A DNA stretch of 64,000 nt from a virus, in IMG/VR virus record IMGVR_UViG_3300013103_000005, positions 12,117 through 76,116 of that record; one strand, 5' to 3'. This document shows, in pieces, positions 9,573 through 54,661 of the stretch. Each line of letters starts with the position of its first letter. Within the stretch, counting starts at the first letter, position 1. The notes beneath the pieces are model-generated. The model had not been told where the DNA came from. It saw only the letters and a list, made by a program, of their open reading frames with translations, and made no database searches. Both the position numbers and the translations under genes were made by a program.

Positions 9573-12104
9573 ATGCCTGATGAAGAACTAAAACAGACAA
9601 TAAAATTAGAAGCTGATGTCTCGCCTGCTGAGACTGCGTATGATAAATTCCATAAAAATATGGATAAAGCTCTCCGTGCGTCTTTTGATTTAGCTTCTAG
9701 GTTACCTAAGATAGATAAGGAGCGTCTAGAGACCCTTGATAGAGTCTCTAAAGTAGTGGATAGAATTACAAGGACTATTATCAGACAAAAACAAATACCA
9801 GAAGAAAATTTAACCGTTTTAAATAGGATTTTAAATAATACCGCTGATGTTAATGAATTACTCCAACAAAGAGATGTAACAATCAGAGAACTGCAATCTA
9901 AAGTAGAGAATTTAAATAAACAATTGGAAAATCGAAGAAAAATTGAAAAGAAGATAAGTAAAGAAACAGAAGAATCTATTAACTTATCTGAAAGAGAAAA
10001 AGAAATAGCTAAAGAAATAGAACGAATTCACGAAGACTTAAAGAAAAGACAAATTTCTTTAGTTGAAATACGAAAGAAAGGAAAGGAAGCTTATGAAGAA
10101 GCTCTTAAAGTAGCTTTAAAACAAGGTAAATCAGAAGAAGAAGCAAAGCAAATAGCAAAAGCACGTTCTAAAGAAGTTGTGGAAGGACTTAAGAAAGAAA
10201 AAGGCGAATCTAAAGTTTTGGGTAAAATATTAAGTGAGATTACTGATTTATTAGGTAGATTTGCAATTCCAGTCGCCGCTTTAGCTTCCTTTACCGGCGC
10301 TGTAGCTTTATTGGTAGATGCAGAAGGCAAAGCAAGACAATTGAGGGGAACTTTAATGGATATATCTGGAATAATAGGAAAATTGAACTTAGCTTTTGAT
10401 GTTACAGGCGGGGCATCTCAAGATTTATCTAAAACAATAGATACCTTAGTTAGATTAGGCGATGAATATAACTTAACTTTAGACGAAGTTACCTCAACCC
10501 TCAAGAATATGGCAGAAATAGGGGTAGATGTAAGTAAAGACTTTACAGGAGCAATTAAAGAAAGCGGAGAAATGGCTATTCTTTTAGGAAGGGATATTCA
10601 GTCGGCTGCTTCCTTTCTAGCTGAAGGTGTGGAAGAATTAGGAATACAAAGCAAAACTTTAGTGGATACTTTTGCAGATTTATATGACGAAATGATTATG
10701 TCAGGGATGGGGGCAAGTAGATTTTCTTCTTTAATTATGAATAGTGCCCAATCATTAGCTTTCTTAGGCGGACAAATGAAAGAGACCGCTAATTTAATTG
10801 CATTGTTAGGAGAAGGAGCTGGTTGGTCTTCTAAGATGACAGAAAGAGCTTTCGAAGATTTAAGAAGCGCAGGAGAGAATTTAAGCGATAATTTAATTTA
10901 CATCGCATTACAATCAGAAAGTACTAGAAAAATATTAGCTGATTTTATTTCCGACCAGATAAGGAAGTCAACTCAATTAGGAAAATTGTGGAGAGAAATT
11001 TTCCAGACTGCAGATGTAGAAAGAATAAGAAAATCGTTAGAAAGATTAACCCCGTTTGATTTAAAAGCAATTATATCAGAACTTCCAGGAGAACAAAAAT
11101 TATTTACCGTTTTAGGAGCGATACAGGATAATTTACTTGGGATTAGGGATATAACTAAAATATCAGGGGTACAAAGAGAATTACTTAAATCATTATTAAA
11201 TTTTAGTGATAAACAATTAACCCAATTTCAAATTATTTATAAAAGATTAGAAGATAGGTTACACGGTATAGCGACCCCATTGGAATTTTTAACCGCGACT
11301 GGGGAAAAACAGAAAGAATATCTTGAACGTGTTAGAAAGCAGATAGGAGAAACGGCAGCTCAGAATTTAGAACAATTAAGGAAAAATTTAGACGAAATGT
11401 TTAAAACTCGTACAAGACAAGAATCGTTATTCGAGAGGGTACAAAAATGGATTGAAAGGAAATCTCTACAATTAGGAAATCATCTCCTAGAAATAGAAAG
11501 TTGGCTAGAAAAGATGACAAACCTAATGTCTTGGAAATGGTTTGGGAAAGTGATTTCCCCGAGGGGATTAGGAATCATAGAATTTATAGAGGAAACTAAA
11601 AAGGCGAGGGAATCTTCAGAAAGAGTTAAAAAACTTCAAGAATCTCAACTTTATTTTTTGAAAAAGCAAGTTAAAGATTTAGGAGGCCTTGGTGAAAGCA
11701 TTCGTGTTTATGCCGAACAGGGAGAAACAACATCTAAAAAACTTTATAGATATCAAAAAGAAATAAGCAGATGGATTTCTGATTATATTAAGTTATTAAA
11801 AAAGCAAGGAATTAAACCTAAAGATTTAGAATCCCTTGCAGAAACTATTAGGCGTGAAGGTGGGACGAGGGCAGATTATCTAGAAGCTCTCATAAAATTA
11901 TCTAATAAAGAAATAAAACAGACCGAGGAATTAGGAAGGAAAGAAGCGTATATTACAATAAATATTCAAGGCAGATTAGAACCCGAACAAAGAATAAAAT
12001 TGGAAACTTCATTAACAAGAGCTATTCAAAGAGGTTTTGAAACTCAAGCTGTTAGAAAAGAAGTTTATAATATTCAAACTGCTTCCACTTTTAAAGGTAG
12101 ATAA
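9573..12104 (+). CDS. Tape measure protein
   Basis: 843 aa, helical/coiled-coil with A/G/L-rich core; canonical position. Confidence 0.8.
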   Translation: MPDEELKQTIKLEADVSPAETAYDKFHKNMDKALRASFDLASRLPKIDKERLETLDRVSKVVDRITRTIIRQKQIPEENLTVLNRILNNTADVNELLQQRDVTIRELQSKVENLNKQLENRRKIEKKISKETEESINLSEREKEIAKEIERIHEDLKKRQISLVEIRKKGKEAYEEALKVALKQGKSEEEAKQIAKARSKEVVEGLKKEKGESKVLGKILSEITDLLGRFAIPVAALASFTGAVALLVDAEGKARQLRGTLMDISGIIGKLNLAFDVTGGASQDLSKTIDTLVRLGDEYNLTLDEVTSTLKNMAEIGVDVSKDFTGAIKESGEMAILLGRDIQSAASFLAEGVEELGIQSKTLVDTFADLYDEMIMSGMGASRFSSLIMNSAQSLAFLGGQMKETANLIALLGEGAGWSSKMTERAFEDLRSAGENLSDNLIYIALQSESTRKILADFISDQIRKSTQLGKLWREIFQTADVERIRKSLERLTPFDLKAIISELPGEQKLFTVLGAIQDNLLGIRDITKISGVQRELLKSLLNFSDKQLTQFQIIYKRLEDRLHGIATPLEFLTATGEKQKEYLERVRKQIGETAAQNLEQLRKNLDEMFKTRTRQESLFERVQKWIERKSLQLGNHLLEIESWLEKMTNLMSWKWFGKVISPRGLGIIEFIEETKKARESSERVKKLQESQLYFLKKQVKDLGGLGESIRVYAEQGETTSKKLYRYQKEISRWISDYIKLLKKQGIKPKDLESLAETIRREGGTRADYLEALIKLSNKEIKQTEELGRKEAYITINIQGRLEPEQRIKLETSLTRAIQRGFETQAVRKEVYNIQTASTFKGR

Positions 12105-12106
12105 TT

Positions 12107-12802
12107 ATGAATTTTAAAAACATAGCTTCAATTTCAACTGCCGCTTTTATGGTAGGCCAGGGCATAAGAGCCCTAAAAGCAAGAGAACAATATGAAGATT
12201 CTTTAGTAACAGATTCTAAAGTTCCTTTTTATATTAGGTATAGATTACCTCAAGGGTTTGATAAACAATCTTTAGAAAAATTGAATTTAAGAAATTTATT
12301 TGATGATACTGGTGATGTAGAAATTGAACTAGAGATTAATCCTTCTTCATTAGAAATTTCTTGTACTCCTTTAATAAACACAACTCAAACAGATGGTGGT
12401 TGGGTTGAGGAATATTGGGGAGAACAAGCAGACACTATTTCTGCTTCTGGAAGAAGCCCTGTGGGTATAATTACAGGGACAGAAGAAGCAAATAAGCATA
12501 TAAGAACTAAAAACAATGTAGAACTAATTCAAAGAACAGATGAAAGGATAAGGTCTAAATACTATCAAATGATTTTAAAATTAGAACATATATTTGCTAA
12601 TCAAGGTTTTATTTATGATGAATATGGGGAATTGATAGCAGAAGGAATTACTGAAATTCAATTTGGAGATTTCTTATACAGAGGAATATTTATTTCATTT
12701 AGTATAACAGAAACTGCTGAAAGTCCTTTTATCTGGGATTATTCTTTTGATTTTAAAGTAAACAAAGATAATATTCTTAATGTTAGAGGTGTGTTTAGAT
12801 AA
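12107..12802 (+). CDS. Baseplate/tail-tube initiator-like protein
   Basis: INPSSLEI...QTDGGWVEEYWG...ESPFIWDYSFDF. Confidence 0.6.
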   Translation: MNFKNIASISTAAFMVGQGIRALKAREQYEDSLVTDSKVPFYIRYRLPQGFDKQSLEKLNLRNLFDDTGDVEIELEINPSSLEISCTPLINTTQTDGGWVEEYWGEQADTISASGRSPVGIITGTEEANKHIRTKNNVELIQRTDERIRSKYYQMILKLEHIFANQGFIYDEYGELIAEGITEIQFGDFLYRGIFISFSITETAESPFIWDYSFDFKVNKDNILNVRGVFR

Positions 12803-48880: not shown

Positions 48881-49474
48881 ATGAAGAACGAAAAAATTTT
48901 GAAAATAATCAGAGAAGAATTGGATTTATTTAAGGTGTTAGATTTTTATAATATAGAATATAACCCTTCCAAAACAAAACAGATGATAATTTGTCCTTTC
49001 CATTCGGAAATAAAACCCTCTTTATCTATTTCTGAAGATGGAAAATTATGGCATTGTTTTGGGTGTAATGCAGGCGGAGATGTTATAAAGTTTATTGAAG
49101 AAATAGCTAAATGTGATTTTAAAGAAGCTATAGAAATAGCAAAGGAAATATTGGGAATTAAAAAAGGAAAAATCAAAATTAAAAAAGTTGTAAAGACGAA
49201 AGTTAAAGAAAAGATTTTGTTTGAAGATGTTCAAGAGGATTTGAAAAATAAATTACTCGAAGAATTGAAATTGATGTATAAGACTTATAGAATTGTTTGT
49301 GATTTTCCTTTGTATTTGGATAAGATTTATGATTATGTTTTGAGCGTTGTTTTTGAAAAAGAAAGATGGTCTGTATCCTCTGTGAGAACCTTCCTTTCCC
49401 AATCCGAATCTTTATTTAGGCTCTCCTTTGAAAACCCTCCTAAAATTTCAAGATGGTATCCAGAAAAAGTTTAA
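48881..49474 (+). CDS. CHC2 zinc-finger (DnaG primase ZBD-like) protein without TOPRIM domain
   Basis: CPFHSEIKPS...WHCFGCNAGGDVI. Confidence 0.85.
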   Translation: MKNEKILKIIREELDLFKVLDFYNIEYNPSKTKQMIICPFHSEIKPSLSISEDGKLWHCFGCNAGGDVIKFIEEIAKCDFKEAIEIAKEILGIKKGKIKIKKVVKTKVKEKILFEDVQEDLKNKLLEELKLMYKTYRIVCDFPLYLDKIYDYVLSVVFEKERWSVSSVRTFLSQSESLFRLSFENPPKISRWYPEKV

Positions 49475-49488
49475 CGCGTTAAACTTTT
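49465..49488. repeat. Palindrome copy 19
   Basis: AAAAGTTTAACGCGTTAAACTTTT. Confidence 0.98.
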
Positions 49489-49585
49489 CAAAAAAAAAAT
49501 TAAAAATTTTTGTTTAAATTTATAAATTATTGGTTTATAATATTTTATGATTTTAAAATTTTTTAAAAAATTTTAAATTTTTCAC

Positions 49586-49613
49586 TTGCATTTTATCGTA
49601 TATACGTTATAAT
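49586..49613 (+). promoter_or_regulatory. Sigma70-type early promoter with long AT-rich upstream tract
   Basis: TTGCAT-16 nt-TATAAT after ~95 nt of A/T tracts. Confidence 0.65.
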
Positions 49614-49649
49614 ATACTATAGAATATAAAGGTTCTTTGAAAATTTTAA

Positions 49650-50125
49650 TCTTCTTTATTTCTCCCGAGACCCTCAAGAGGAAGCGGAGGGTGAGAATCC
49701 TCTTAAAAAACACAAAGGGAGAAATAAAGAAGAACGCGAGGGACGGCGGACAGTCCAAGACGCACTCAGGTGGGTGCCGAAATCGGAAAGCCTACGAAGG
49801 CCAAGTAGGCGAGTACGAGAGTAATTGGCTAGGGAAACCACCGAGAAGGTCGGTCGGGGGTTGGCTCTGAGCCCTTGATGGTCTAGATGCGAAAGGCAAG
49901 CTCGCCTTTAAATCCCTTCCTCAAACCATTTCACTTCTCCTTCCTTCTTTAAAACCTAACAAAAGAACCCAAGACACTTGCTGAGTAGGTCCGAATCTGT
50001 CAAGGGTGGCTTGTATAAGCGATCGGAGCACCTGTGTCCGGGACAGGATACCTGACGGATTTAGGCTTTTCTTGAGAGCTAACGCTCTCAAGCTAATAAG
50101 GCTATCTTTAGTCTTATTAGCTAGT
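49650..50125 (+). ncRNA. Candidate structured RNA / leader of unknown family
   Basis: GC-rich island with a 17-bp perfect stem, several hairpins and GNRA loops, downstream of the promoter. Confidence 0.5.
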
Positions 50126-50166
50126 GGGCGTTATACATTATTAATATATGTATAGGAGGGAGGAAA

Positions 50167-50565
50167 ATGGCTAGAATTCAATTCAGAAAATTCGAATATG
50201 ATAGAATTCTTCTCAAACTTTCCGATGACATTCACGGTTTCATCAGAGAAAAAGCGAAAAATATGGAAGTTTGCTGTTACGAGTATAAAGACAGTCGCCT
50301 CCATATCGTTATCGGAACGACTTGGGATGGGTCGTTCCATAATCCAGGGCTTATTATTAAAGCGGAAGCGGAAATACTCAGAAAGGGATTCTGGAAACGT
50401 CTCCGCAAAAAGCTTAAAGAAGCAGAAGAGTTTTTCAGAAAAAGAATGGAGGGGGAAGAGAGCATCAACTGGGACGCTCTTAATAAAATAAAAAGAATGA
50501 GAGGACATGCCGAGGCAATCCGTCGTTGGGAGTTGTCTCGGAAAAATAATAACCTTTTTTCATAA
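50167..50565 (+). CDS. Early hypothetical protein (paralog 1)
   Basis: Strong RBS; GFWKRLRKKLKEAE...RWELSRKN. Confidence 0.75.
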   Translation: MARIQFRKFEYDRILLKLSDDIHGFIREKAKNMEVCCYEYKDSRLHIVIGTTWDGSFHNPGLIIKAEAEILRKGFWKRLRKKLKEAEEFFRKRMEGEESINWDALNKIKRMRGHAEAIRRWELSRKNNNLFS

Positions 50566-50576
50566 GGAGGAAGAAA

Positions 50577-50966
50577 ATGACGAGGCACTTCTATGTTAGT
50601 GAAATATGGAATTTAAAAAATGAAAAGAAGTTCAAAAAATATATATGGCTTGGGGTCTCACCTGAAATGTTCCAAGCCATATTAAGGAAAGGCGAGACAT
50701 TTACTTATGAAGATTCTCGCCTTTCCATTAAAATCGGGTGGAAGTGGTCTGAGTCGTTTCATGCCTCAGACACGACCACCGATATACAGGTCTATACAAA
50801 AAAGCGTTCTGGATTTTTCAAACGCCTTCGCAAGAAGCTCAAAGAAGCGGAGGCGTTTTTTCTTGGAACAGAAGATGATATGTTCTCTGCCTTAGATGAT
50901 ATTAAGAAGCAAAAAAGAGAAATTGAGGCAATTTCCAGATGGGAGTTGTCTCGTAAGAATGCTTAA
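50577..50966 (+). CDS. Early hypothetical protein (paralog 2)
   Basis: GFFKRLRKKLKEAE...RWELSRKN. Confidence 0.75.
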   Translation: MTRHFYVSEIWNLKNEKKFKKYIWLGVSPEMFQAILRKGETFTYEDSRLSIKIGWKWSESFHASDTTTDIQVYTKKRSGFFKRLRKKLKEAEAFFLGTEDDMFSALDDIKKQKREIEAISRWELSRKNA

Positions 50967-50987
50967 CCTTTTTAAGGAGAGAAGAAA

Positions 50988-51176
50988 ATGAAATTCAAGA
51001 AAGGCAACAAAGTCAAAATTAAAGTCGGTCGCCTAATGTCTTCTTACAGGTGGCTAGCTGATAAGGAACTAACCTATATTGGAAAATATAAAAGGGGTGC
51101 TACCACCTATGCGATTTTAAAGACGCAGGGTGGTAGCAGAATAGACGTAAATATTAAGAATGTAGAAAGGAGGTGA
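50988..51176 (+). CDS. Small basic SH3/KOW-like protein
   Basis: MKFKKGNKVKIK; AAGGAG RBS. Confidence 0.55.
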   Translation: MKFKKGNKVKIKVGRLMSSYRWLADKELTYIGKYKRGATTYAILKTQGGSRIDVNIKNVERR

Positions 51177-51180
51177 TATT

Positions 51181-51537
51181 ATGGCAAGATATCTGACCAA
51201 TGCTTTTAGCTTAAATATGATTGGAAATAAGACAGGAATGTTTATTGTACAGAACGCAGACTTGAAGACCCTCCGGGAAATATCCGATTTGCAATCGGTA
51301 ATTGGTCATCAAGCTACTGCTGATTTACTTACAGAACTTCTTGGGCGAAAGATTGAATTCAATCGAGTAGCCCTTGAACTCAAAAGCGGGGATATATTAT
51401 ATGTGGTTACTGTTTTCAAAAATGGTAAGCCTTTCCGTCTCCCAGAAGGAAAGGTGCTTACTAAGGAAGAACTGAAAGGGTTAGAATTAAAGATTAAAGT
51501 TATCCAGTTTGTATCGGATAACCAGAAAGAAATGTAG
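51181..51537 (+). CDS. acrIII-1: DUF1874 / AcrIII-1-like viral ring nuclease
   Basis: YLTNAFSLNM, SVIGHQATA, NRVALELKSGD, RLPEGKVL. Confidence 0.85.
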   Translation: MARYLTNAFSLNMIGNKTGMFIVQNADLKTLREISDLQSVIGHQATADLLTELLGRKIEFNRVALELKSGDILYVVTVFKNGKPFRLPEGKVLTKEELKGLELKIKVIQFVSDNQKEM

Positions 51538-51552
51538 GGAGGAGGTGAGATT

Positions 51553-51753
51553 ATGAGAGGTTTCAAAAAATTATTGAAAGTTTTAGAAGAAAATCCAAAT
51601 ATGATAGTTAGCAACATAGGAAGTGGTAAATATAGAATAGAAGAAATTACCGCAGGAGAATTGAGAGTACACCTTTATTACCTATTATACGATATTTGTT
51701 GTGAGCTTGGTCTGGAGAAGGAAAGAGAAGATATTAAAGAACTTTTTAAATGA
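51553..51753 (+). CDS. Hypothetical protein
   Basis: GGAGGTG RBS. Confidence 0.6.
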   Translation: MRGFKKLLKVLEENPNMIVSNIGSGKYRIEEITAGELRVHLYYLLYDICCELGLEKEREDIKELFK

Positions 51754-51766
51754 AAGGAGGTGGATT

Positions 51767-52600
51767 ATGGAACTTATTAGGATTGAAGAAATTGAAAGAT
51801 TGGTAAACGAGACAGGTAAGAAAGGTCTTAAAGACCTGCTTGCCAGGATGAAAGAGTTAGAACAAGGTAAGGTAGAAAAGGAAACTGTGGATAGATTACT
51901 AGCTAAGAAAGAATGTCCTGAATGTGGTAGAGAAGTTGAAAAGGGTGGAGAGTTATGTTATGTATGTCAAAAAAGAAAGGAGGAAGAAGAAAGGCAAAAG
52001 AAAATAAGTAATAATATTACTACCTTGTTTAATTATCTAAAAGAAAAATCCGAGTTTTATACTAAAGACGAGAGTACAATTTATTATTTTGAAAGATATA
52101 AGGAGACTAAAATTCAATACAGTATAAGGAGGGAAGGTTTATATTATAGAAAGTCCTTCCGTCCTTACGCTTATGCAATAGAAATTTACGACGATAATAA
52201 TTATAGAATTGCTTCCAGGATTAAGAAGGATATTTTACAATTAAGTAAAGAAGAGATTAAAAAGTTAGCTGAAATTATCCATAATAAGATAGAAAAAAAG
52301 GCTCAAGAGGAGAGAAAGAAAATAGACCAAAGGGTTAAGGAATTGAAGAAAGAAGAGGAAATCAAAGCGAAAGTCAAAGAAAAATTTGGGGTAGAAGCTT
52401 CCCCATATTATTACCGAGTTGGAAATAGATTTGAAAAAGGAAGTTCTTTTTATTTTGAATACGAAGGGCATAAGATATATACTTATGATGGAAAAACATT
52501 TCAGATAGATGGCTTACAATTAGATGCAAAGAAAACAAGAGAATACATACAAAAAATAAATGAAGTTAAGAGTGAATTCGCCAAATACAATATAGAATAA
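51767..52600 (+). CDS. Hypothetical protein with zinc finger
   Basis: AAGGAGGTG RBS before ATG 51767; CPECG...CYVC. Confidence 0.65.
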   Translation: MELIRIEEIERLVNETGKKGLKDLLARMKELEQGKVEKETVDRLLAKKECPECGREVEKGGELCYVCQKRKEEEERQKKISNNITTLFNYLKEKSEFYTKDESTIYYFERYKETKIQYSIRREGLYYRKSFRPYAYAIEIYDDNNYRIASRIKKDILQLSKEEIKKLAEIIHNKIEKKAQEERKKIDQRVKELKKEEEIKAKVKEKFGVEASPYYYRVGNRFEKGSSFYFEYEGHKIYTYDGKTFQIDGLQLDAKKTREYIQKINEVKSEFAKYNIE

Positions 52601-52623
52601 TTTTATTTTAAGGGAGGTGTAAA

Positions 52624-53604
52624 ATGGAAAGAAAGAAAATGAATATAGGGATTGAAATTCCTTTCAGCAGATACACAACAAAAACAGACGTCAGAGAAGC
52701 CCTGTCAAGGAACAAAAACAAAATAAAAGTGAGGGTAAAGGATTACCCTAAGGTTTTTGAGTATCTAGAAAAAAGATATTGGAAGAAATGCTTCAGAGAA
52801 GAAGCAGAGAAGTATAGAACAAAAGCTGTCCGAGTCTGTGAAAAAGCTAGACAAAAATGGCTTGATAAAAAAGGCGAGTTTTTATGGAGTCATTACGGAG
52901 AACAACTTACTAGAAAACAAAAAGTCTATTACAAAGGATGGGGAGGCAGAGGATATACAGAGGACAATGGAAAATGGGGGTGGAAAAGGAGGGTTTGGCA
53001 TTATGCAAGGATTAGGGAAGAGTGGGAGGATGGACAAAGGAAATTAATATTCTCTATAGGAGACGAAGAACCTGAACACATCTTTACAATTCCACAAGGA
53101 TTCTATTATGACCCACAAAAACAAGACTATATCAAAAGAATAGCACCAAATGCTTATTATATTCTGGTTTTCCAAAGAAAAAGAGCTAAATTTCAATTGG
53201 TGGTTGAATACAAAAATGAAGAGTATCACTTTGGTTATACCCTAGAAATGTATTCAGACAGAACCCTTAGAAAGAAAATACAAGAAGGTATTGCTTATAT
53301 AAAAGAAAGGAGAAGCAGGAGAGCTCAAGAAATTCTTAAAAACAGACTTGCTCGTCGTATTCAAAAATGGCTTGCCTCTCCTGAAAAACTTAAGCAGGTT
53401 TGGGTCACTGTTCAAGATAGCCTGAATGCCGGTAATTGCAAAGCACAGACAATGAGTGTTTATGAAACCCTTCAGGCAAGATTAGGAACTTCAAAAGAAA
53501 TTGGAGCAGTCAGGGCAGATTATCTTCTGACTATTAGAGATGACTTCTATGCAAAAAGAGCAATAGAAAGGGCAATTTTAAGAAAATTACAGGTGGTCTC
53601 TTGA
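52624..53604 (+). CDS. Hypothetical protein
   Basis: Long basic ORF with RBS; VTVQDSLNAGNC motif. Confidence 0.65.
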   Translation: MERKKMNIGIEIPFSRYTTKTDVREALSRNKNKIKVRVKDYPKVFEYLEKRYWKKCFREEAEKYRTKAVRVCEKARQKWLDKKGEFLWSHYGEQLTRKQKVYYKGWGGRGYTEDNGKWGWKRRVWHYARIREEWEDGQRKLIFSIGDEEPEHIFTIPQGFYYDPQKQDYIKRIAPNAYYILVFQRKRAKFQLVVEYKNEEYHFGYTLEMYSDRTLRKKIQEGIAYIKERRSRRAQEILKNRLARRIQKWLASPEKLKQVWVTVQDSLNAGNCKAQTMSVYETLQARLGTSKEIGAVRADYLLTIRDDFYAKRAIERAILRKLQVVS

Positions 53605-54086: not shown

Positions 54087-54194
54087 ATGAAATTTGAAGA
54101 CATTGCTATAGGTTTATTGTTGGGTATCCTGTTCGGCTTGCTATTTGGCTGGGCAGGGGTTATAACAAATGGATTTTCAAATTGTCCGTTTTGA
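54087..54194 (+). CDS. 35-aa membrane peptide (absent from ORF track)
   Basis: AAGGAGGTG RBS; MKFEDIAIGLLLGILFGLLFGWAGVITNGFSNCPF. Confidence 0.55.
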   Translation: MKFEDIAIGLLLGILFGLLFGWAGVITNGFSNCPF

Positions 54195-54208
54195 GAAAGG
54201 AGAAGAAA

Positions 54209-54661
54209 ATGAGGTACGAGATTAAACTAAAAACAATAAAGATAAAAATTAAGGAAGAGAATCTTGTGTCCTCTGAATCCTTAATCACTCCCGAGCATGC
54301 AGTAAAGTTGCTTAAAGGAATTTACAGGGATTTAGATGCAGACCAGGAGCATTTTGGTATTCTCTTCCTTAACTCTCAAAATCAGATTATTGGCTTCAAG
54401 ATTTTATTCTCTGGTGGACAAAATTTTTCTCAGATGGATATGAAAATTTTGTTCAGGAACATTCTTTTATTCGGAGCTACAGCGGTAATCATATTCCACA
54501 ATCATCCTAGCGGGAACCCGAAGCCTTCTGAAGAAGACAAACTCATAACAGAAAGAATTAAAAAAGGCTGCGATTTGTTAGAAATTATATTATTAGACCA
54601 CATAATTATTACAATGGATAGTGAAAATTTTTACAGTTTTAAAGAAAATAGACTTTTTTAA
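54209..54661 (+). CDS. radC: JAB-domain (RadC-like) protein
   Basis: QEHF...LNSQN...HNHPSGNPKPSEED...LLDHII. Confidence 0.9.
   Translation: MRYEIKLKTIKIKIKEENLVSSESLITPEHAVKLLKGIYRDLDADQEHFGILFLNSQNQIIGFKILFSGGQNFSQMDMKILFRNILLFGATAVIIFHNHPSGNPKPSEEDKLITERIKKGCDLLEIILLDHIIITMDSENFYSFKENRLF

Follow-up and report, generated by a model that had tools for sequence, protein, structure and literature searches.

The DNA considered here, referred to throughout as the window, is a stretch of 64,000 nucleotides (nt) corresponding to bases 12117-76116 of the 76-kb IMG/VR virus contig IMGVR_UViG_3300013103_000005 (record G000). Within it, an element of ~0.5 kb beginning at position 49650 and rich in guanine and cytosine (GC) had been predicted from sequence to be an unrecognised structured non-coding RNA, a put-like antitermination leader or a ribozyme, with no choice made among the three. 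The long open reading frames (ORFs) of the window all lie on the + strand, and the element sits among them in a 692-nt gap without a conserved ORF (49474-50167). On its 5' side are genes for a DNA polymerase of family A, a DNA methyltransferase, a helicase of DnaB type and a 197-amino-acid protein with no more of DnaG than its Zn ribbon and first ~120 residues (the DnaG-Zn-ribbon protein), and on its 3' side are small ORFs, mostly without a family match, which we refer to as the early genes. Comparison with a distant relative firmly supports a conserved, single-copy, pseudoknotted RNA read from the + strand and belonging to a family outside Rfam, while its proposed role, a stable early RNA acting in trans, is put forward more tentatively. 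The landmarks around the element are as follows:

49464..49489, + strand: A/T-rich palindromic hairpin where the DnaG-Zn-ribbon gene ends, in overlap with its stop codon; likely the end of the upstream replication operon
49490..49585, no strand assigned: AT-rich spacer, GC 0.10-0.17; possibly an UP-like promoter flank or a DNA-unwinding tract
49586..49613, + strand: promoter-like site, TTGCAT (49586-91), 16-nt spacer, TATAAT (49608-13)
49631..49643, + strand: boxA-like word GGTTCTTTGAAAA, ~18 nt downstream of the -10 hexamer and 6 nt upstream of the first helix of the element (P1)
50071..50133, + strand: 3' boundary of the element, either two perfect hairpins (50071-92 and 50091-122) or one hairpin of ~24 bp (50080-50133)
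50154, + strand: Shine-Dalgarno sequence AGGAGGGAGG ahead of the first early ORF
50167-50565, + strand: first early ORF, 132 amino acids, no family match, not common to the relative described below

Conservation and covariation with a single relative

A helicase search of a 5.8-billion-protein set found one close relative, at 50% identity, with the next best match at 26%. This relative, L002, is an IMG/VR contig of 111 kb (record G001) with an estimated completeness of 80%; both records are incomplete. Its helicase and PolA have 50% and 54% amino-acid identity, respectively, to those of the window phage, and its gene order matches that of the window, with polymerase, helicase and Zn-ribbon protein followed by an 860-nt gap that contains a homologous element of ~0.64 kb. 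The element is present as a single copy in each phage. Eight colinear exact blocks of 8-12 nt each are common to the two gaps, giving a total of 75 nt, compared with 21±8 nt in shuffles, of which 0/500 reach 75 (maximum 50). Exact-block conservation per 100 nt is 14.5 in the element, compared with 11.8 in PolA, 7.3 in the helicase and 4.5 in the primase-like gene (the DnaG-Zn-ribbon protein). The likeness is confined to these short blocks, and BLAST of the element against the whole L002 record did not align the homologue.

The element is non-coding. Six-frame peptides of the gap matched those of the L002 gap as fragments only (best E >0.2; the flanking helicase, as a control, gave E 1e-143), and the ORF at 49637-49870 (77 amino acids), which the original prediction had named as the protein-coding alternative, has no PHROG or Pfam match and its peptide is not kept in L002. 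From one conserved block to the next, the two phages differ by insertions and deletions whose lengths are not divisible by three. Furthermore, the ORFs after the gap are unrelated in the two phages, and the first seven early ORFs (50167-53604) have no counterpart in the 21 kb of L002 that were compared. Taken together, the block conservation, the absence of a kept peptide, the non-triplet indels and the unrelated downstream ORFs point to selection acting on the nucleotides of a non-coding stretch that travels with the replication module and not with the early genes.

The element is also distinct in composition and folding. It had been described as clearly richer in GC than its flanks, and it proves to be the maximum of the whole window: GC is 0.48-0.56 across 49650-50100 when measured over 100 nt at a time, 0.10-0.33 just upstream and 0.32-0.38 downstream, and no bin of the 64 kb exceeds 49801-50100 (GC 0.493). 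Purines are abundant in the 5' half of the RNA. Folding of the + strand yields -179.9 kcal/mol compared with -151.2±6.7 for dinucleotide shuffles (z -4.26, 0/100 shuffles as good), and the - strand gives a z of -3.27 against its shuffles.

Covariation supports an RNA. The structural alignment was built from the anchor blocks by script, as MAFFT global alignments of the element or of its core misalign, and all helices of at least 4 bp that form in both sequences at equal offset from the invariant blocks were enumerated. Five helices of at least 5 bp carry at least two compensatory changes, compared with 1.15±1.1 when the inter-block segments are shuffled, and 0/300 shuffles reach five. Two helices, P1 and Px, were added afterwards, their arms being further from the anchors or displaced by an indel. 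In the resulting model of ten helices, 25 of the 48 bp differ between the window and L002 by compensatory changes, 22 are invariant, 1 has a one-sided change and there is no broken pair. As a control, the 3' partners were shifted by 1-3 nt, which gave 2-5 compensatory and 36-40 broken pairs. The use of G-U pairs, which had also been anticipated, is borne out by ten G-U cells that are compatible with the + strand alone, so that the RNA strand is the + strand.

The element matches no known RNA family. Rfam 15 (4227 models) gave no match at gathering thresholds in the whole window, and at E up to 10 the regions 49400-50300 and 49960-50200 gave only chance-level microRNA and small nucleolar RNA matches; in the L002 gap the only match was an adjacent hammerhead, described below. 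Several known kinds of RNA were considered individually and found no support. With E relaxed to 10, neither the group I intron model nor the GIR1 model (RF00028, RF01807) hit the element of G000 or that of G001, and no split gene flanks the element. The RNase P RNA model (RF00010) gave no match in the two records and was matched in control genomes, ARAGORN found no tRNA or tmRNA in the window, and no known riboswitch aptamer model matched, with no terminator-like site in 49000-50700. A search of the two phages for antisense targets of the invariant blocks turned up none in common, most invariant blocks lack the GGA expected of a CsrA sponge, likenesses to the sarcin-ricin loop and the L11 site occur in one phage only, and a B12 box is not kept in L002. 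Overall, the reading of the element as an unrecognised structured RNA is upheld by the missing Rfam match and by the compensatory changes and strand-specific G-U pairs seen against this one homologue.

Further members were sought widely. Blastn of the region against 50,697 phage records gave no match, and viral-contig searches with the helicase and with the first early ORF returned no relatives. When four block patterns were run over IMG/VR the L002 contig was the only real match, and one block pattern run over 241 M JGI metagenome records and 185,579 GTDB species genomes gave chance matches only; such chance matches lacked the other conserved blocks or fell in coding sequence. At loci retrieved with a PolA profile (identity <=31%) the element was absent by a covariance model of its 3' core, and a literature search by literal sequence returned primers only.

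Structure model and boundaries of the element

The model consists of a 5' pseudoknotted domain, a core domain and a third domain, with the following parts:

49650..49733, + strand: Domain 1, the closing stem P1 around an H-type pseudoknot (L002:12305-12387)
49650-66/49717-33, + strand: P1, 17 bp, 8 compensatory pairs relative to L002
49671-75/49687-91, + strand: S1, 2 compensatory pairs (CCCUC/GAGGG in the window, CGCGC/GCGCG in L002)
49678-82/49698-702, + strand: S2, 2 compensatory pairs (GAGG/CCUC in the window, GUGC/GCAC in L002)
49682-87 and 49706-17, + strand: invariant strands of domain 1, AAGCGG and the A-rich 12-nt AAAAACACAAAG, both common to L002
49736..49905, + strand: Core domain, closed by Px and holding P2, P3, a variable hairpin and P4
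49736-40/49901-05, + strand: Px (GCGAG/CTCGC), compensatory at 4/4 shared pairs
49741-44/49753-56, + strand: P2, 2 compensatory pairs, with the invariant 8-nt loop GGCGGACA
49769-73/49838-42, + strand: P3, long-range, 2 compensatory pairs (GGUGG/CCACC in the window, GGACG/CGUCC in L002)
49790-49810, + strand: variable peripheral hairpin, 21 nt in the window and ~90 nt in L002, a length change typical of a peripheral RNA helix
49853-59/49873-79, + strand: P4, G-U-rich hairpin, 1 compensatory pair
within 49736..49905, + strand: invariant core blocks CGAAATC, GGCGAGTA, AAGGTCGG, GGGGTTGG and GATGCGAAAG
49895-900/49977-82, + strand: P6, 4/5 shared pairs compensatory, crossing Px to give a large core pseudoknot
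49906-49976, + strand: pyrimidine tract in the P6 loop, ~70 nt, C/U-rich, G-poor and unstructured, GC skew -0.49
49982..50062, + strand: Domain 3, bounded by the invariant TGAGTAGGTC (49982-91) and GGATACCTG (50046-54)

This architecture overlaps only in part with the hairpins first proposed. All the sequence features listed in the original prediction exist in place, including AATCTGTCA (49994)/TGACGGATT (50053), CCTGT/ACAGG, GCCTAC/GTAGGC (49790-810) and TAC-GAGA-GTA, and the closing GCGAG/CTCGC pairing covaries as Px. However, GCACTC/GGGTGC and GG-GAAA-CC are not kept in L002 and compete with the covarying P3, and CCG/CGG and AATCTGTCA/TGACGGATT have no counterpart there. Domain 3 has GATCGG and GGACAG in common with L002, its interior measures ~60 nt in the window and ~170 nt in L002, and its helices, AATCTGTCA/TGACGGATT among them, could not be matched between the two. 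The predicted pyrimidine linker is likewise real in the window; the P6 loop of 87 nt that holds it corresponds to one of 34 nt in L002 that is not pyrimidine-rich, and the tract is therefore not a conserved feature. The tract (49906-49976) resembles a Rho-loading site and could pair with the Shine-Dalgarno sequence at 50154, and it is absent from L002. A further observation concerns GGACAG, which occurs twice in each RNA (window 49745-49753 and 50041-50046; L002 12399 and 12741), one copy in the invariant 8-nt hairpin loop and the other in domain 3, and may be a repeated protein-binding or tertiary-contact motif.

At the 5' end, the site that the original prediction described as a promoter is present and promoter-like, with a perfect -10 hexamer and a weak -35 in which TTGCAT matches TTGACA at 3/6; the promoter scan did not list the site. 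The L002 equivalent of the upstream hairpin (12100-12130) is GC-richer and has a U run, and the terminator scan flagged neither. Transcription would start just ahead of the boxA-like word, and the position of the element suggests expression at the start of infection, as had been proposed. GGTTCTTTGAAAA is the sole exact copy in the window, matches with <=3 mismatches occurring at chance level, and L002 has a related word, GGTGATCATTGACAA, at the same distance from its P1. GGTTCTTTGAAAA may resemble the boxA of rrn and nut sites; a literature check for a boxA consensus yielded none. A boxA at this site is a lead consistent with the proposal, not an established element.

At the 3' end, the structured RNA of L002 is followed directly by a self-cleaving ribozyme:

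L002:12877-12950 (G001:C1:23906-23979), minus strand of the record: hammerhead type II (RF02276), 41.1 bits at a cut-off of 37, E 2e-7

The CUGAUGA and GAAA core of this hammerhead is intact, and a UA cleavage site, the two hairpin stems and a pseudoknot between loop I and the 3' tail are all in place, the features of type II being used here as previously described (PMC3088659). It is the sole hammerhead in the 111-kb record, begins ~35 nt past the last invariant block and stops 25 nt short of the first start codon. On self-cleavage, the structured RNA would come free bearing a terminal cyclic phosphate, and the mRNA would begin with a 5' hydroxyl. The window and the whole of G000 hold no hammerhead type II match, the words CUGAGUA (49981) and CUGACGG (50051) breaking the core, and the suggestion that the element might be a ribozyme found no support in the form of a known ribozyme in the window. 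By analogy with L002, the hairpins at 50071..50133 may be a processing site cut by RNase III, an enzyme that acts on long hairpins of such a kind in phage early transcripts.

The phage itself is distantly Herelleviridae-like, as judged by its PolA, which is nearest to those of SPO1-like Bacillus phages (~33% identity) and which makes a host among the Bacillota plausible. SPO1-like phages are known for group I-type introns. Below the cut-off of 50, group I intron matches occur in G000 at C1:8031-8187 (36.1 bits, E 4e-9) and C1:6981-7284 (18.6 bits); these lie upstream of the window, and the first 12 kb of the contig may contain one or more introns. The small early ORFs include a STIV B116-like protein (DUF1874, AcrIII-1-type) at 51181-51537 and a RadC-like JAB protein at 54182-54661. 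One 2017 marine metagenome DNA run holds a near-identical 176-nt contig over 49963-50138 with four differences, of which those listed by position (50021 G>A, 50042 G>A and 50055 A>G) sit in a loop, a mismatch or a wobble pair. A small word share in this one run of a single study hints at a marine habitat. No RNA run is among the sequencing runs listed as holding the stretch.

What the RNA may do in infection

We favor, with a probability of roughly 45%, an rrn-like stable early RNA that has a boxA-like leader and a 3' processing site and acts in trans. On this reading, early transcription downstream of the replication genes would yield the element RNA before anything else. Close behind the transcription start, a boxA-like word would prevent the polymerase from terminating early on so long an untranslated RNA. 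The conserved body would come next, and a processing site, the hammerhead in L002 and a long RNase III-type hairpin in the window, would then part this body from the early mRNA. Once freed, the RNA may persist and play a part in trans in host takeover, most probably by binding a protein or serving as its scaffold. A stable RNA is favored because the order of parts mirrors that of a stable-RNA operon, because the RNA is conserved and the genes after it are not, and because the L002 ribozyme lies exactly at the border between RNA and mRNA, where it would sever a put-like tether. Given this hammerhead, the RNA is probably released as a separate molecule. That the two elements represent a new class, namely large pseudoknotted phage RNAs that are made as stable RNAs under the first early promoter, are cut free by a ribozyme or RNase III and act in trans in host takeover as a decoy, scaffold or new ribozyme, is an idea we hold with some reserve and at rather less than even odds.

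The early regions of phages are usually read as encoding small host-takeover or anti-defence proteins, whereas here the best-conserved first product appears to be an RNA of a complexity comparable to a ribosomal RNA domain. It has been kept between phages with 50%-identical helicases while the genes downstream turned over completely. If the proposal is correct, the first effector made by the phage would be an RNA and not a protein, and action in trans would add an RNA effector to phage host takeover. The pairing of RNA and hammerhead would also give the ribozyme a concrete job in parting a stable RNA from an mRNA. The system also lends itself to direct tests, since knowing the sequence is enough to study cleavage, ends and structure in vitro.

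Several points weigh against this proposal. Only two members are known, too few for R-scape-type covariation statistics, and the ten helices of the model were picked post hoc. The homologous stretch of L002 is no stabler than its own shuffles (z -0.83), and the window fold owes some of its stability to the perfect 17-bp stem 49650-66/49717-33 and to the 3' hairpins; thermodynamics alone is therefore insufficient, and conservation and covariation carry the case. The -35 of the window matches at only 3/6, and no comparable + strand promoter-like site was found in L002. At the 3' boundary of the window no known ribozyme was matched (Rfam, relaxed E), so that release here is by analogy. Additionally, the support is sequence analysis throughout, and a cis function finished co-transcriptionally is equally compatible with later removal of the leader.

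This last point bears on the main rival, a cis leader, which we regard as unlikely even though it is the strongest of the alternatives. The nascent RNA, with boxA and Nus factors or by binding polymerase as HK022 put does, would confer resistance to termination or pausing so that the long early operon is read through, and it would have no role once cut off. This would account for a boxA-like word right behind the promoter-like site, with position and sequence partly kept in L002, for the co-orientation of all the downstream genes and for the stretch from the element to the first gene having neither an intrinsic terminator nor another promoter-like site. Structured antiterminator RNAs also exist, such as put and the EAR of Bacillus eps operons. 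Put-type modification of polymerase, however, needs an RNA tether, and the L002 hammerhead cuts the RNA off the polymerase-bound transcript. With regard to the put-like antitermination leader offered in the original prediction, a boxA-like word does lie behind the promoter-like site, but the hammerhead argues against an RNA that depends on its tether. At 480-640 nt and with two pseudoknots, the RNA is also far above the size of any known antiterminator RNA, and terminator-like sites downstream are not clearly enriched (15 compared with 10.1±3.1).

A sensor is much less probable. One or more domains, for example the 5' pseudoknot, would bind a metabolite or ion and thereby determine how the early mRNA is processed, how stable it is or how it is translated; in L002 this might work through gating of the hammerhead. 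The layout of domain 1, a compact pseudoknot with a conserved A-rich strand, is common in small aptamers, the type II hammerhead has a stem II closed by flanking RNA such that neighboring structure could gate it, and regulated cleavage has been suggested for phage hammerheads (PMC3088659). Nonetheless, no known aptamer was matched in Rfam, there is no evident expression platform in the form of a terminator or a conserved strand sequestering the Shine-Dalgarno sequence, and the window has no hammerhead to be gated.

Two further readings each have a very slim chance. The pseudoknotted core could itself be a large ribozyme that catalyses its own processing or acts on another RNA. Its strands run in the order Px - inner helices - P6 - Px' - loop - P6', reminiscent of how P3 and P7 are arranged in group I introns, the core pseudoknot is fully covarying and many junction strands are invariant; there is also the precedent of twister-sister, pistol and hatchet, structured RNAs found beside self-cleaving ribozymes that proved to be ribozymes. 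Topological likeness is nevertheless weak evidence, none of the group I, GIR1, RNase P or small-ribozyme models matched, and there are no flanking exons for splicing. Alternatively, the AT-rich tract and promoter could mark a replication origin, with the RNA as a pre-primer or R-loop former like ColE1 RNA II. The synteny with DnaB and with a DnaG fragment reduced to its Zn ribbon is conserved (DnaG residues ~2-130 only; window 48881-49474, L002:11485-12111), and the low GC of the spacer and the purine-rich 5' half of the RNA would suit such a role. In neither of the incomplete records (76 kb and 111 kb) was a DnaG catalytic core or a DNAG_N, Toprim_2 or Prim-Pol domain detected; this lack of a detected primase catalytic domain gives the origin slightly more weight, although a primase may lie elsewhere in these phages. 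Against an origin, cumulative GC skew climbs monotonically through the site with no turn, the 2',3'-cyclic phosphate end left by a hammerhead is unable to prime, and priming needs neither conserved pseudoknots nor invariant loops.

The least probable reading is that there is no RNA function, the blocks being kept for a DNA-level reason such as protein sites or a packaging or end sequence, or the helices being due to chance; two sequences, post hoc choice of helices and the ordinary stability of the L002 fold leave some room for it, but it does not account for pairing-preserving compensatory changes, G-U pairs valid on one strand only, a helix count above all 300 shuffles and length-variable hairpins between invariant blocks.

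Comparison with known systems

Among known RNAs that follow an early or operon promoter directly, HK022 put and Bacillus EAR are similar to the element in being structured and in that it, too, could act on the transcribing polymerase, but the element is five to eight times larger and in L002 is severed by a ribozyme. The pRNA of phi29 is likewise a stable structured phage RNA from an early promoter of a Firmicutes-type phage, and it acts in trans within a machine; the element, however, has no Rfam pRNA match, is three to four times larger and occurs in a phage whose PolA is SPO1-like and not phi29-like.

The hammerhead of L002 has a parallel in the haloviruses HF1 and HF2, in which 13 nt separate a hammerhead from the first ORF of an early transcript whose 5' end was mapped to the cleavage site (PMC3088659). 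In L002 the corresponding distance to the first early ORF is 25 nt. The window has no hammerhead, and what is new relative to these viruses is the large conserved RNA upstream of the L002 cut.

The order of parts is the same as in rrn leaders and lambda nut, with a promoter, a boxA-like word, a long structured untranslated RNA and a separating hairpin or ribozyme; in those systems, Nus antitermination depends on boxA and RNase III processes the untranslated transcript afterwards. The element differs in having no identified boxB or boxC and in a product that is not ribosomal RNA, and the boxA likeness is tentative.

In size and complexity the element is similar to GOLLD and ROOL (with OLE and HEARO as a size class), which are also hundreds of nt long with many helices, pseudoknots and invariant junction strands. 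GOLLD and ROOL are RNAs of phages and prophages and, like the phage-encoded element, lack coding potential. The element matches none of the Rfam models of these four families. Unlike GOLLD and ROOL, it lies away from tRNA genes, stands at the start of an early operon, between a boxA-like word and a processing site, and is known from two members. If it does act in trans, it would join GOLLD, ROOL and OLE on the short list of large structured RNAs whose function is open.

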